Shown here piece after piece: positions 28,782 through 34,714 of a stretch of DNA of 34,714 nucleotides (position 1 is the first letter of the stretch; the number at the start of each line of letters is the position of its first letter). Under the pieces are notes generated by a model. That model made no database searches, was not told where the DNA came from, and worked only from the letters and a program-made list of their open reading frames with translations. Where the stretch lies: the IMG/VR virus record IMGVR_UViG_2740892487_000001, one strand, 5' to 3'. The translations under genes were made by a program, and so were the position numbers. The DNA is from a virus (taxonomy: Duplodnaviria > Heunggongvirae > Uroviricota > Caudoviricetes).

Positions 28782-29047
28782 TGCTTCATCTCCCTTTCCA
28801 TTTCATCAATGTCAACGTCATCAGGAAGATGGGAGCAATACGCCGCTATACCATGATGATTTATCTCATACCCTTTGAACGTTACCATCTGGCGCGTAAT
28901 CTCAACTTCGTTCAGGAATCCGTCATCGCATAACTGCCTGGCTATTTTCGATTTGGTCTGGATTATTGGTAGTGCCTGTTCTTTCAAAGCGCATGATATT
29001 TGTGCATCCCATGCCTTTTCGAGAATGGCTAATTGTTTTTTATTCAT
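28778..29047 (-). CDS. Hypothetical protein (89 aa) downstream of the helicase
   Basis: ORF coupled to the helicase stop (overlapping TGATG). Confidence 0.5.
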   Translation of the reverse strand: MNKKQLAILEKAWDAQISCALKEQALPIIQTKSKIARQLCDDGFLNEVEITRQMVTFKGYEINHHGIAAYCSHLPDDVDIDEMEREMKQ

Positions 29048-30483
29048 CAGAATCCTCCTTTCTTCTTGGACTGCGGTTCCTCGCGTTCACGGCGGCGCAT
29101 TTCAGCAGACTGTTGGTCTGTGTCATAAATAGCGCCATTTGCCTGAATGCAGTACACCGTGCCGGTATTGCCATGACGATTGAGACGAAGGATTAGTTCA
29201 GTTTCACCAGGTGGAACACTGTCATCAAAAGCGCCTTCACGATGGATCCCGACCCAATAATCGCAATCCTGTTCAATCTGCCCTGTATCTCGTGAGTCAC
29301 TTGGTAATGGGCGTTTATTGGTTCTGCTTTCCAGTGCGCGGTTAAGCTGCGTCAGAAGCACAACAACGCAATCAAGCTCTTTGGCAAGGTTCTTCAGTCC
29401 TTTGGTGATCATGCCGTAAGCAAGGTCGTTGCGATCGGCCTTCTCAGCGGTCATTAGTGTCAGGTAATCGACCAGAATCATGCCAACACATCCTTTTTCT
29501 CGCTTGATTCGACGGCTTTCGCTGACGATTTGAGCCAGAGATAATCCCGGCGTGTCGTCGATGTAAAGCAGGTCGATTTCACTCAAGCGATTGGCTGTTT
29601 CGATCGCCCTGTTGAAGTCACCATCGTAATCACCCTGATAGCCGTCATCGGCGTCATTTGTCGCCGGAAGGTAAAAAAATATTCGGGTTAACACCAGACT
29701 TCTGCCCTACCAGTTTTTCCAGTATCTGGTCACCTGGCATTTCAAGGCTGAACATCAGAGCTGGCTTTTTCTCATGCACTGCGCAGTTGATTGCCATCTG
29801 GCTGTATAGCGTCGTTTTCCCCATCTTAGGGCGAGCGCCAATGACAAACAGAGAGCCTTTCACCAGCCTTTCGGTGACAGCATCCTGTCCAGCGATGGGA
29901 TCCCTGTGCTCATTACTCGTTGTTCGCCTGACGGGTCAAATCGCTTCTCAAGGTCGCTAACCCAGTCTTCCATGACCTCACCAAATGAGCGAAGGCCGCG
30001 ACGCGATCCGGTTTTTGCATGGTCTGTCAGTTGCGTGAAAATCGCCTGAATAGCTTCGTACTTCTGCGTTGCAGTCATTCCGTTGCGGGAATAGAGCAAT
30101 TCCGTCGCTTCAGTCATGCGGTTGATGGCGTAGCGTTCCATTGCGGTTTCACGAACCTGCATTGCATAGGCAACGATGTTTGCTGCGCTTGGCGTGTTCT
30201 TTGCGATCTCAGCGATATAAGCAAAACCGCCAACAGACGCCGTTAACGATTTGCGCTCCAGTTCATCGAAAAGCGTCAGCCCATCTACTGGCTTTTGCTC
30301 CCGGTGCATTCTGGTTATTTCTTCGAAAAGGATTTTGTGTGGTCGGCTGTAAAATGAATCGGGCTTCAGCATCGCCAGAACTTTCTGGACGCGCTCACTG
30401 CTGTCATCATCCAGAAGCAATCCACCAATCACCGCCTGCTCAGCCTCGATGCTATGGGGCGGCGCATAAAAATTATCGGTCAT
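29047..30483 (-). CDS. DnaB-family replicative helicase; frame broken near 29860-29870 and at A7 (29673-29679)
   Basis: N-terminal PPHSIEAEQAVIGGLLL; Walker A GARPKMGKTT; downstream IDDTPGLS...ILVDYLTLM. The three ORFs 29860-30498, 29654-29863 and 29047-29694 are collinear pieces. Confidence 0.85.
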
Positions 30484-31363
30484 CGTGTTCACCCTCACGA
30501 ACTTTCAGGTAGGTATTATCGTTAAGCAGGAAATCAAATCCCTTTTTGTGCCAGACGGTTCCGCGTTGATGGTTTGGGCGTTCTTCGAACATCCATCGGC
30601 AATTTTCGCCTACGTAGCTCAAATAATTTCTCCAGTCCTGCATCGTGAACCCATGCCCGTCAAGCTGGCGGGTTATCACTCCGGCTTTGCGCCAGAACGT
30701 TCGGATCTGGTTTTTACGCTTGTCATTCAGTGCGCGGATTCTTGGCGCTTCAGGAAGGATTTCGTGGTAAGCATCGACAACATCCTGACAGCTAACGGAA
30801 GGTTTTTTCTTGTCAGACTTTTTGTCTGCTGTGGCACTCTCTAATACGTCAGTATTAGAGATATTATTTATATTATTGTTTATGGACAACCGTTGGACAA
30901 CCGTTGGACAATCTCCGCTGAGAGCCGCGCCATTACTGGTGTTTGCGTTGGACAACCGTTGGACAACCGTTGGACAATTTTTTGCCTGAAAATCGTCATA
31001 TTTAACGATTGTAAACAGGCTAAATTTCTTCCCCATCGAGCAAATATTAAGCATCCCTTTCGACTCAAAAGTCCGTAATAAGCTCCGAACTTTGTTGTCG
31101 GGGATGAATGTTTCTCTGACCAGCGACGGGCGTCCAGTTATCATCTGACCGCGATCAACAGTTATCGGACCGATATCCGTATTGACGACAGTAGATTCGT
31201 GATTAGCCTTGAGGATTAAGTGAAGCCAAAGATGTACTGCCTGAGAGTCCTTATAGAGCCTGCTGTCCATAAACTGGCGGTGTATAGAGACATACCCCAT
31301 ACTGGATGCCTCCTGATGTTGTACAGGGTTATGCCTGTAATCAGCTAACTTAACGACGCCCAT
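30473..31363 (-). CDS. Replication initiation protein (O-like function; the origin iterons lie inside the gene)
   Basis: Position between cII and the helicase; the iteron arrays encode a repeated CPTVVQRLS segment inside the ORF. Confidence 0.7.
   Translation of the reverse strand: MGVVKLADYRHNPVQHQEASSMGYVSIHRQFMDSRLYKDSQAVHLWLHLILKANHESTVVNTDIGPITVDRGQMITGRPSLVRETFIPDNKVRSLLRTFESKGMLNICSMGKKFSLFTIVKYDDFQAKNCPTVVQRLSNANTSNGAALSGDCPTVVQRLSINNNINNISNTDVLESATADKKSDKKKPSVSCQDVVDAYHEILPEAPRIRALNDKRKNQIRTFWRKAGVITRQLDGHGFTMQDWRNYLSYVGENCRWMFEERPNHQRGTVWHKKGFDFLLNDNTYLKVREGEHDDR
30850..31010. repeat. Replication origin: two arrays of 11-bp iterons (CCGTTGGACAA) flanked by AT-rich DNA
   Basis: TGGACAACCGTTGGACAACCGTTGGACAAT at 30883-30911 and again at about 30947-30978, with AT-rich sequence on both sides. 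Confidence 0.8.
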
Positions 31364-31511
31364 GTTTCACTCCTGCTTTGGCTAGTCTGTAAACACCAAC
31401 AAGGCGCTCTGCGAACGCCCTGTTATTTGCTGCGGCTACCACTAATCCCTCAGGTGAATCAGGGTGTCGAATCTCTTCTTTTTCCTGGTATTTCTTACGA
31501 CGTTTTGTCAT
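31350..31511 (-). CDS. Hypothetical small basic protein (53 aa) between cII and the initiator
   Basis: MTKRRKKYQEKEEIRHPDSPEGLVVAAANNRAFAERLVGVYRLAKAGVKHGRR; ORF only. Confidence 0.3.
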   Translation of the reverse strand: MTKRRKKYQEKEEIRHPDSPEGLVVAAANNRAFAERLVGVYRLAKAGVKHGRR

Positions 31512-31543
31512 AATTACTCCTGTGGATTGATCCAGTAATTCCC

Positions 31544-31840
31544 TCAGAATTGCATATCAATTTGCTCAGAATCCTCGGTGGCAGCCGGGGATTTTTTCTT
31601 TGTGATTCCATCCAATGCATACTTAAAAGCCCTGCTAATCGGACTGATGTCTGATGCCATTCCGAAAGCACACAAGACCGAAGCAATAAATCTCCAGTCC
31701 GTTCTGCTTATCTTCGATTCATGACAGCCAATCATCTTTGCCAGACCGCGCTGGGTAAGCGTTGACAGGTTGATGAGTAAATCAGTTTCAGCGCGATCAA
31801 TTTCTCGCTGTGTTGGCTTGCTATAACTTGCTTGTGTCAT
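31544..31840 (-). CDS. cII: CII-like transcriptional activator
   Basis: C-terminus KKKSPAATEDSEQIDMQF parallels lambda CII (KKRPAATERSEQIQMEF as recalled); HTH segment LAKMIGCHESKISR. Confidence 0.8.
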   Translation of the reverse strand: MTQASYSKPTQREIDRAETDLLINLSTLTQRGLAKMIGCHESKISRTDWRFIASVLCAFGMASDISPISRAFKYALDGITKKKSPAATEDSEQIDMQF

Positions 31841-31922
31841 TTGTTAATTTTCCAATAGTGAATAGTTAGTTGAAAGGTATGCGTGGAAACGCATATGGCC
31901 TTAGTTGGTCAGATATCTTGGG

Positions 31923-31971
31923 GCTCGCTTTGTCAGCGACGTAGGACGAATGTCCATTGTGAAAAGAGCGG
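31923..31971 (-). promoter_or_regulatory. nutR: boxA-like CGCTCTTTTCACA and boxB-like hairpin GTCGCTGACAAAGCGAGC
   Basis: Located between cro and cII on the pR transcript; boxB resembles the P22-type GCGCTGACAAAGCGC. Confidence 0.6.
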
Positions 31972-31977
31972 TGTTAC

Positions 31978-32188
<211 letters not shown>

Positions 32189-32198
32189 TTAGTACAGG

Positions 32199-32272
32199 CA
32201 ACCATTATCACCGCTAGAGGTAAAATAGTCAACACGCACGGTGTTAGAAGTTTATCCCTTGCGGTGATAGAT
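32199..32272. promoter_or_regulatory. OR1-OR2-OR3 with divergent pR and pRM
   Basis: TATCACCGCTAGAGGTA (32206-32222), CAACACGCACGGTGTTA (32230-32246), TATCCCTTGCGGTGATA (32253-32269) match the lambda OR half-site pattern; pR -35/-10 sit on the minus strand. Confidence 0.85.
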
Positions 32273-32276
32273 TTAA

Positions 32277-32995
<719 letters not shown>

Positions 32996-33026
32996 TTGTT
33001 TTATTTTTCACGTAATAGGATGATTT

Positions 33027-33368
33027 ATGACACAATTTCAACTTGCATTAATCGCTAGAGAAGTTGATGGAGAAGTCATCCATCTTCGCACCAAAGACGG
33101 ATACATCAATGCCACCGCGATGTGCAAGTCTGCGGGGAAGCTACTTGCTGACTATACACGACTAAAAACAACACAAGATTTTTTTGATGAATTATCACGC
33201 GATATGGGGATTCCCATATCGGAGTTAATTCAATCATTTAAAGGCGGAAGAGCAGAGAATCAAGGGACTTGGGTTCATCCAGACATCGCAATTAATTTAG
33301 CTCAGTGGCTATCTCCAAAATTTGCAGTGCAAGTATCGAGATGGGTGCGTGAGTGGATGTCAGGTTAA
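33027..33368 (+). CDS. KilA-N domain protein, in the position occupied by rexA in lambda
   Basis: 113-aa ORF directly downstream of cI on the same strand; sequence is consistent with a KilA-N/APSES-type DNA-binding domain (judged by eye, low certainty). Confidence 0.6.
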   Translation: MTQFQLALIAREVDGEVIHLRTKDGYINATAMCKSAGKLLADYTRLKTTQDFFDELSRDMGIPISELIQSFKGGRAENQGTWVHPDIAINLAQWLSPKFAVQVSRWVREWMSG

Positions 33369-33404
33369 AGAGCGCCTGCCGAACTCCCTATCCACCTTAA
33401 GCGG

Positions 33405-33787
33405 TATATGACAAACCGAGGCAGAGTTCCTCATACGCACTTTTCTATGCTTAATGAACTGACGTTTAACTTGGTTGCGCCACTTGAACAGGCCGGATAT
33501 ACGCTGCCAGAAAAAAATGGTCCCTGATATTTCAGAGGGTAGGGTTTTCTCGCAATGGCTCCGTGACAACCGGGGGGTTGAGCCGAAGACATTCCCAACA
33601 TATAACCATGAGTACCCAGATGGCCGGACATTCCCGGTACGTCTATACCCAAACGAATATTGCAGATTTCAAACAATACTTCAACGAAGTGTGGCTGCCT
33701 CAGTACGCTCCTAAATATTTTGCTGAACGAGACCAAAGGGCATTGACGTTGATTGAGAAAATCATGCTACCTGACCTTGATTCCTAA
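33405..33787 (+). CDS. Hypothetical protein downstream of the KilA-N gene, same frame as it; frame broken at A7 (33511-33517) and again near 33640
   Basis: ATG at 33405; coding-like sequence continues through three frames (…PDISEGRVFSQWLRDNRGVEPKTFPTYNHEYPDGRTFPVRLYPNEY / ADFKQYFNEVWLPQYAPKYFAERDQRALTLIEKIMLPDLDS) and ends 9 nt before a terminator. Confidence 0.45.
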
Positions 33788-33795
33788 ATGTTATT

Positions 33796-33822
33796 CCCGG
33801 CCACAGAGCCGGGTTTTCTTTG
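33796..33822 (+). terminator. Intrinsic terminator ending the cI operon (t_imm-like)
   Basis: CCCGGC-cacaga-GCCGGG followed by TTTTCTTTG. Confidence 0.75.
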
Positions 33823-33973
33823 CCTCACGATCCCCCTCACCCAAGAACACATAACCAATTGTATCTATTTGAAAATAAATAGATACAACTCACTAAACAT
33901 AGCAGTTCAGATCTCTCACCTACCAAACAATGCACCCCTGCAAAAAATAAATTCATATAAAAAAACATACAGA

Positions 33974-34037
33974 TAACCATCTGCGGTGATGAATTATCTC
34001 TAGCGGTGTTGACATAAATACCACTGGCGGTGATACT
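33974..34037 (+). promoter_or_regulatory. OL3-OL2-OL1 operators and pL promoter
   Basis: TAACCATCTGCGGTGAT, TATCTCTAGCGGTGTTG, TACCACTGGCGGTGATA; -35 TTGACA (34009-34014) and -10 GATACT (34032-34037), matching lambda pL as recalled with a few substitutions. Confidence 0.85.
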
Positions 34038-34105
34038 AAACACATCAGCAGGACGCACTACTCACCAGGGCGGTGAATATACAACGATTCAAATATGAAT
34101 CTACG

Positions 34106-34120
34106 GCGCTGACAAAGCGC
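34106..34120 (+). promoter_or_regulatory. nutL boxB hairpin (P22 type)
   Basis: GCGCTGACAAAGCGC between pL and the N-like gene. Confidence 0.65.
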
Positions 34121-34248
34121 AATAACCAAAGTGAACTTTGGGGTGAATGCAGAAGCTAACCTTCTCGGCGGAGGCGCTTTGCAATGATTACGCTACCGGA
34201 GTTAGTCGCCCGGCTGTATTCACCGCCAAAGTTCACCAGGAGGTCTAT

Positions 34249-34632
34249 ATGACACGCAGAACTCAGTTCAAAGGCAATTCACGTTCTCGTCGTCGTGAGC
34301 GTTTAAAGGCAAAGGCATTAGCTAACGGCGTACTGGCCCGCGAAGAAGCAATAAGTTCAGAAGTATTACACCGCCCTACTCTAAGCAGAGCGCAGATTCA
34401 GGCTAAAGGTACTCACGAAACGCCTGAGCGCATAGAAGACGCTAAGCCAATTAAGTTCATGGCACAGGACGTGATCTGGCAACAGAAAGAATACAGACGC
34501 AATCTGGAGAGAGCGGCCATTGTGTACGCGAATGAGTTTGGACATAAGCAACCAGAAACTGGTGTATGTCTTCCAAATGTAGCTCTTTACGCAGCAGGAT
34601 ACCGGAAATCAAAACAACTGACGGCGAGATGA
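34249..34632 (+). CDS. N-family antiterminator (P22 gene 24-like C-terminus, not lambda N)
   Basis: AGGAGG 6 nt before the ATG; arginine-rich motif GNSRSRRRERLKAKALA; C-terminus LPNVALYAAGYRKSKQLTAR resembles P22 gp24 as recalled. Confidence 0.7.
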   Translation: MTRRTQFKGNSRSRRRERLKAKALANGVLAREEAISSEVLHRPTLSRAQIQAKGTHETPERIEDAKPIKFMAQDVIWQQKEYRRNLERAAIVYANEFGHKQPETGVCLPNVALYAAGYRKSKQLTAR

Positions 34633-34714
34633 CTTGTGTTGGTCGCCAGAAGCAACGCGGAAAATCAATTCCAGCTTATTACGATTGAGGTGAGCCATGC
34701 TCAAGAAAGTCAAA

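Follow-up and report, generated by a model that had tools for sequence, protein, structure and literature searches.

Organization of the cI-OL interval

Alignment of the window (the whole stretch of viral DNA analysed here, 34,714 nucleotides) to phage lambda identified two blocks of homology flanking a short cassette (Table 1). The first pairs lambda 38255-37226 with window 31964-32996 at 95.9% identity, covers cro, OR and cI, and ends at the cI stop codon; the second pairs lambda 35824-35550 with window 33796-34076 at 91.5% identity, begins one base beyond the rexB stop codon, and spans OL and pL. Between them lies a 799-bp insert (32997-33795) which has no counterpart in the lambda alignment. 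Because the flanking alignments end at the cI stop and restart just past the rexB stop, this insert replaces rexA-rexB exactly. Homologs of RexA and RexB are likewise absent from the insert, for which Pfam, PHROG and PADLOC searches returned only KilA-N and BstA. A first-pass annotation of this DNA, made from the sequence alone, had placed a cassette unrelated to rex, closed by a terminator, in the rexAB slot of a lambda-like cI, OR and OL region, and each of these elements was borne out, with homology resuming at the terminator (33796).

Table 1. Features of the cI-N interval of the window
Feature	Coordinates	Strand	Remarks
Lambda-type cI repressor gene	32280..32995	+	95.9% identity to lambda over cro-cI; three ORFs in the sequence as given
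Left end of cassette, 30-nt leader	32997..33026	+	AGGA Shine-Dalgarno site at 33017-33020, 6 nt before the ATG
5' part of probable disrupted bstA, codons 1-113	33027..33368	+	Complete KilA-N domain; ends at the premature TAA
Premature stop, GAA (Glu114) to TAA	33366..33368	+	Interdomain linker; judged a real mutation
Linker and BstA_C remnant, codons 115-253	33369..33787	+	Not in one frame; original stop TAA at 33785-33787
A7 run, A6 in every relative	33511..33517	+	Homopolymer sequencing artefact
2-bp TC deletion	33659..33660 (after 33659)	+	Shifts the frame, with loss of the last ~43 BstA_C residues; judged real
Intrinsic terminator of the cI operon	33796..33821	+	Hairpin CCCGGC-N6-GCCGGG and T tract, from scan and fold
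pL promoter with OL operators	34009..34037	+	TTGACA-17-GATACT; 91.5% identity to the lambda OL/pL region
N gene	34249-34632	+	Downstream of pL; N_peptide Pfam match, E 9.8e-16

The gene carried by the cassette, identified below as bstA, starts about 30-31 nt past the cI stop on the same strand, and a terminator scan found no terminator-like site between cI and 33027. The terminator itself lies directly after the gene, comprising a hairpin at 33796-33813 followed by TTTTCTTT, with a fold of -12 kcal/mol. The matching stretch is labelled 'terminator' in the immunity-region records of HK542 and HK244, and the stem is also kept in the D5, PhiR5_2, H6 and DY612 loci. Taken together, the position of the gene, the AGGA site ahead of it, the interval free of terminators and the terminator after it point to co-transcription with cI. 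Also identified was a broader conservation of the leader of ~30 nt and the 5' coding region, which are kept behind three different repressor genes, including those of E. coli H6 and DY612.

Comparison of the loci L001, L005, L006 and L020 revealed differing contents of the slot behind lambda-type cI genes: rexAB in lambda, a 253-aa BstA clade in E. coli D5, a protein of the 301-aa BstA-Ec type in O178:H19, and hicA-hicB with a further ORF in mEp234, another phage with lambda immunity. That bstA shares its position with lambda rexAB, and that this position is a known mosaic hotspot, was pointed out explicitly by Owen et al. 2021 (PMC8585504), and Degnan et al. 2007 (cited in PMC8585504) had noted the slot as a swap site before. 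Exchange of defence cargo at this position in lambda-immunity prophages is, in this respect, already known.

One gene, interrupted in its linker

The first open reading frame of the cassette encodes 113 aa and matches KilA-N (PF04383) over residues 13-112 (Pfam, E 1.7e-27), in agreement with the first-pass annotation. That annotation had further described a second gene of about 125 aa, in the same frame as the first and separated from it by a single TAA. The TAA is in frame with what follows it, but the downstream sequence, as it stands in the window, is broken up among three frames, and no second ORF of ~125 aa is present after the TAA among the window ORFs.

By megablast (at least 80% coverage), 139 complete E. 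coli genomes carry this cassette, as does phage PhiR5_2. In E. coli D5 (L001) and PhiR5_2 (L003) it consists of a single 762-nt CDS located between cI and the terminator, encoding an intact protein of 253 aa (WP_000191544.1) annotated as "KilA-N domain-containing protein". Once the three lesions described below are repaired, the translation of the window is identical to this protein at 252 of 253 residues. Furthermore, all 120 of the homologs listed are single proteins, ~240-310 aa in length (nearly all ~250 aa) with the exception of the partial sequences P0026 and P0058. Because the intact alleles are one CDS and the listed homologs are single two-domain proteins, we conclude that the locus holds one gene, and reject a two-gene cassette; by comparison with the intact alleles, the supposed second ORF corresponds to residues 115-253 of the same 253-aa protein. 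Both domains are found in one polypeptide in alleles L001, L003 and L008, and not in the window.

A working split system, in which two co-transcribed genes encode a KilA-N protein and a separate C-terminal protein that cooperate in trans in defence or toxicity, was considered in light of E. coli H6, where the TAA is the sole lesion and PGAP annotates two 113-aa ORFs, one for KilA-N and the other for a hypothetical protein matching PHROG 6287 at 1e-38. A few natural homologs consisting of the N or the C part alone are also mentioned by Owen et al. (PMC8585504). In the window, however, the 2-bp deletion replaces the last ~43 residues, among them the invariant F219, W223, Y231 and F232, and no ORF preceded by a ribosome-binding site spans the C domain. 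Against this reading stand also the 120 listed homologs, each a single protein, and the same allele in RefSeq E. coli EC2641, for which only the 113-aa ORF is annotated. We therefore regard a split system as very unlikely.

Assignment to the BstA family

Profile searches placed the intact 253-aa protein in PHROG 6287, "BstA abortive infection system, replication inhibitor" (E 1.8e-82), with residues 1-252 matched to profile positions 6-301 of 304. The same profile is matched by BTP1 BstA (E 2.1e-150) and, over positions 6-121, by the 113-aa product (E 4.3e-28). A match to the PADLOC BstA model extends over residues 120-237 (E 2.5e-20), within the part that the first-pass annotation had left unrecognised as a second protein and that contains BstA_C. 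Pairwise similarity to BTP1 BstA is more limited, with BLASTP aligning residues 133-251 at 29% identity (E 5e-15); hhalign of a 60-member clade profile against BTP1 BstA returned a probability of 97.9% with 187 collinear columns extending across both domains. Precomputed annotations assign BstA_C (PF26567) to 120/120 of the listed homologs and KilA-N to 119/120, the exception being P0058, a 153-aa partial sequence carrying BstA_C only. PF26567 also matches a 55-aa leftover ORF in loci L009-L017.

The features of the BstA family found here comprise an N-terminal KilA-N domain, a C-terminal BstA_C domain in the intact allele, and a position directly downstream of the repressor gene; within the window the BstA_C domain persists only as frame-broken DNA. 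Pfam searches of the intact protein with E values up to 1 identified KilA-N only, and an antirepressor was ruled out, no KilAC, ANT or P63C domain being present. Sequence searches against solved structures gave weak matches to Mbp1, restricted to the N-domain, and no NCBIfam model matches either the intact protein or BTP1 BstA. The 253-aa clade is distant from the BstA proteins that have been assayed, at 22-29% identity limited to the C-domain by BLASTP. The accession WP_000191544.1 was not found in the supplementary material of Owen et al. 2021 (PMC8585504), nor does the first part of their Table S1 contain a 762-nt enterobacterial entry. Together, these findings identify the gene as one already described, bstA, in its published position. 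The first-pass annotation had foreseen that its corrected proteins might match a well-characterised lambdoid gene such as a standard antirepressor; such a match was in essence obtained, to BstA and not to an antirepressor.

Genuine lesions and sequencing artefacts

Three sites in the cassette had been singled out as suspect in the first-pass annotation (33366-33368, 33511-33517 and about 33640), and the window does differ from intact alleles at 33366, in the A run, and after 33659. The six in-gene differences between the window and D5/PhiR5_2 include these three lesions, a synonymous A/G difference at 33035, and T/C at 33677 (H218Y). At 33366, G is found in the intact loci L001 and L003, and T in the window, L002 and L009-L018; the affected codon lies in the interdomain linker, residues 112-121 of which have low pLDDT in the AF2 model of an 86%-identical homolog (P0001). 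The TC dinucleotide is present in L001, L003, L007 and L008, and absent from the window, L002 and L009-L018.

Window 29024-34714 was aligned to L016, a human-gut metagenome scaffold, revealing 0 substitutions in 5692 bp and seven single-base indels. Six of the seven are +1 insertions in A/T runs of at least 6 (29673, 32054, 32596, 32683, 33511 and 33959), the remaining one being a G missing from the window, and the same pattern of homopolymer indels was observed against every other relative. On these comparisons, the homopolymer indels of the window are sequencing or assembly errors rather than biology. The cI gene is split into three ORFs by +T at 32596 and +A at 32683, both of which are absent in every related locus; thus judged, these two cI frameshifts, a frameshift in cro and the A-run lesion of the cassette are artefacts. 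Window positions 29865, 23031 and 23080 also appear on the list of systematic single-base indel sites, and the DnaB-like helicase gene, and probably other genes of the window, look frameshifted from the same indel errors. A separate difference in cI lies in the KKASDSAFW region, where G>A at 32696 changes GAT to AAT (Asp>Asn) compared with D5, EC2641 and PhiR5_2; it is also carried by L016, which marks it as a real variant.

The TAA and the TC deletion present a different picture. Both are shared by RefSeq E. coli EC2641 (L002) and by ten independent NCBI/ENA loci (L009-L018), each with a 760-nt allele that matches the error-corrected window perfectly, and an allele identical to the corrected window was identified in at least 13 independent assemblies. 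A 51-mer spanning the TAA also occurs in RefSeq EC2641, 1008S19 and strain 81. Recurrence in independent assemblies marks the TAA and the TC deletion as real. Were all three lesions instead sequencing errors, the phage would carry an intact, active bstA, as the seven single-base indels relative to L016, the A run among them, might suggest. The TAA, however, is a substitution, in a window with no substitution errors over 5.7 kb, and the TC deletion falls outside homopolymers, with both recurring identically in independent assemblies. Error was hence accepted as the explanation for the A run and rejected for the TAA and the TC deletion, and we give practically no credence to an intact gene. Suppression of the stop by a phage tRNA was also ruled out, the window containing no tRNA gene. 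The true state of the locus, as judged from these alignments, is a gene with a premature stop and a frameshift. With the TAA at codon 114 and the 2-bp deletion, the window copy represents a pseudogene of the BstA family and not a functional member; window 33027-33787 is thus, very probably, a single, inactivated BstA-family gene.

Distribution of the truncated allele

The exact 113-aa product was identified on at least 1000 public contigs, compared with 924 for the intact protein, and is listed in 1970 collection blocks. Among complete RefSeq E. coli genomes the balance differs, with the intact 51-mer found in 15 and the TAA 51-mer in 3. Other truncations of the same gene also exist, ranging from 69 to 239 aa. 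Across L009-L018 (4001-4760), flanking prophage genes vary despite a dead allele that is 100% identical, and its contexts extend from intact-looking early regions (L010, L015 and L016) to remnants next to a pectinesterase gene. The dead allele appears to travel with the lambda cII-cro-cI-OL module.

Codon 114 is also TAA in the H6 allele discussed above (L007 3040-3801), where it reads GGC TAA compared with GGT TAA in the window. This allele has 19 nt differences from that of D5, lies behind a different repressor, and carries no other lesion. Its TAA arose either by repeated nonsense mutation of the linker or through conversion of a very short tract.

The commonness of the truncated allele is not predicted by pure decay alone. 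Because the sampled copies are identical over 760 nt, other truncations exist, and intact and TAA 51-mers stand at 15 to 3, ordinary decay combined with hitch-hiking alongside a successful immunity module is favoured over selection for the truncation. Under the latter, a stand-alone 113-aa KilA-N protein, expressed with cI, would be useful in itself, perhaps by regulating through DNA binding, by easing the toxicity of BstA, or as a decoy against related BstA, possibly together with 5' aba-like DNA. Such selection would account for a stop placed exactly in the interdomain linker, which allows a complete KilA-N domain to be made, for the same codon being TAA on a second haplotype, and for the abundance of the product, including in intact-looking prophages. 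Conversely, the ten identical copies fit one recent hitch-hiking haplotype, the many other truncations are as expected for ordinary decay, intact alleles outnumber TAA alleles in complete RefSeq genomes, and the isolated N-domain of BstA has no known function. We consider it unlikely that the truncation has been kept by selection. Only a slim chance is likewise given to the fuller scenario in which linker nonsense arose at least twice and spread widely, turning a costly abortive protein into a lysogen-expressed KilA-N protein with a role of its own. If true, free KilA-N and 5' aba-like DNA may neutralise or evade related BstA, or regulate phage DNA transactions.

Proposed function and fate of the gene

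BstA is a prophage-encoded abortive-infection protein which localises to the DNA of an incoming phage as it replicates and blocks that replication, with loss of the cell (Owen et al. 2021, PMC8585504). Lytic replication of the prophage itself is protected by aba, a short cognate stretch of DNA that overlaps bstA at its 5' end; such elements are specific to their clade (PMC8585504). Activity has been demonstrated for BstA proteins of BTP1, E. coli and Klebsiella prophages, and bstA is typically located just downstream of the prophage repressor gene (PMC8585504).

By homology, the 253-aa clade may be expected to act like the assayed BstA proteins; in the literature, no experiment on this clade was found. 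In its intact form (762 nt, 253 aa), the gene encodes a KilA-N DNA-binding domain at the N-terminus, joined by a short linker to BstA_C, and would be transcribed from pRM with cI in the lysogen. In the window, GAA>TAA at codon 114 is predicted to cut off BstA_C within the linker, and the 2-bp deletion further on would destroy the domain, leaving the lysogen to make at most a free KilA-N domain of 113 aa. Because the stop precedes BstA_C and the frameshift removes the conserved C-terminal third, the window copy would almost certainly give no BstA defence. The proposal that the cassette is an exclusion, toxin or anti-defence module thus holds for its intact form, which belongs to an abortive-infection family, and fails for this copy as an active system, given its stop and deletion.

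We also searched the 5' end of the gene for an aba-type element. No similarity to the 63-bp BTP1 aba and no terminal direct repeats were detected; inverted repeats were limited to 6-7 nt, a size expected by chance, with no aba-like repeats, and Rfam searches of the region gave no match with E up to 0.1. The conservation of the leader and 5' coding region behind three repressors is compatible with an aba-type element and proves nothing.

These results have modest practical consequences. Inventories of phage defence should leave the dead allele out of their counts of active systems, while the intact 253-aa allele is a reasonable candidate for a defence screen. Beyond correct annotation, the finding matters little.

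Phage context

Window 1-22000 comprises a P22-like virion module, with a tailspike carrying a head-binding domain, the Ant antirepressor, injection proteins, coat, portal and terminase. This module is joined to the lambda immunity region and an N gene of the H-19B/933W type. As a lambdoid/P22 mosaic, the window falls into the same broad class as BTP1, the phage in which BstA was discovered. Also observed, at ~30950-30975 on the minus strand within a 296-aa replication gene, was a tandem arrangement of an 11-bp unit, CCGTTGGACAA, of which loci L011 and L018 contain a different number of copies from the window. These repeats are probably origin iterons inside an O-like replication gene.

Comparison with known systems

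Among characterised systems we compared BTP1 BstA (STMMW_03531; PMC8585504), which has the same two-domain plan, belongs to the same PHROG 6287, and shows collinear homology (hhalign 97.9%). It also occupies the same place, directly downstream of a cI-type repressor gene and upstream of N, in a P22-like phage. The two differ in length (307 aa in BTP1, 253 aa for the intact form of the window gene) and in the N-domain, which is a canonical Pfam KilA-N in the window gene and only 'KilA-N-like' in BTP1 BstA. Furthermore, the BTP1 locus possesses aba, whereas the window copy is, on the present reading, a pseudogene in which no BTP1-like aba was found.

The BstA-Ec type, represented by E. coli NCTC10963 and O178:H19 (WP_000026554.1), is a further member of the family and was assayed by Owen et al. 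2021. In O178:H19 it lies in the same slot, before N and behind a cI (WP_001274755.1) identical to that of D5. At 301 aa, it shares 42% identity with BTP1 BstA and 22% with the intact protein of the window clade, the latter in the C-domain only. The BstA-Ec type represents a different clade from the 253-aa proteins.

Lambda RexA/RexB occupy the same slot between cI and the terminator and OL, with cassette boundaries that coincide to the base, and likewise provide an abortive-infection function expressed in the lysogen. They have no sequence relation to the window gene, however, and RexAB consists of a sensor and a membrane protein, as opposed to one soluble DNA-binding protein. The mechanisms also differ, with BstA blocking replication at phage DNA and RexAB depolarising the membrane (PMC8585504).

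KilA-N proteins of the antirepressor types (P1 KilA, and lambdoid proteins combining KilA-N with KilAC or ANT) share the KilA-N (APSES-like) fold with the window gene. Their C-terminal domains are KilAC, ANT or P63C in place of BstA_C. Genes of these types sit elsewhere, for example beside the lysis genes in mEp234, and not in the repressor operon.
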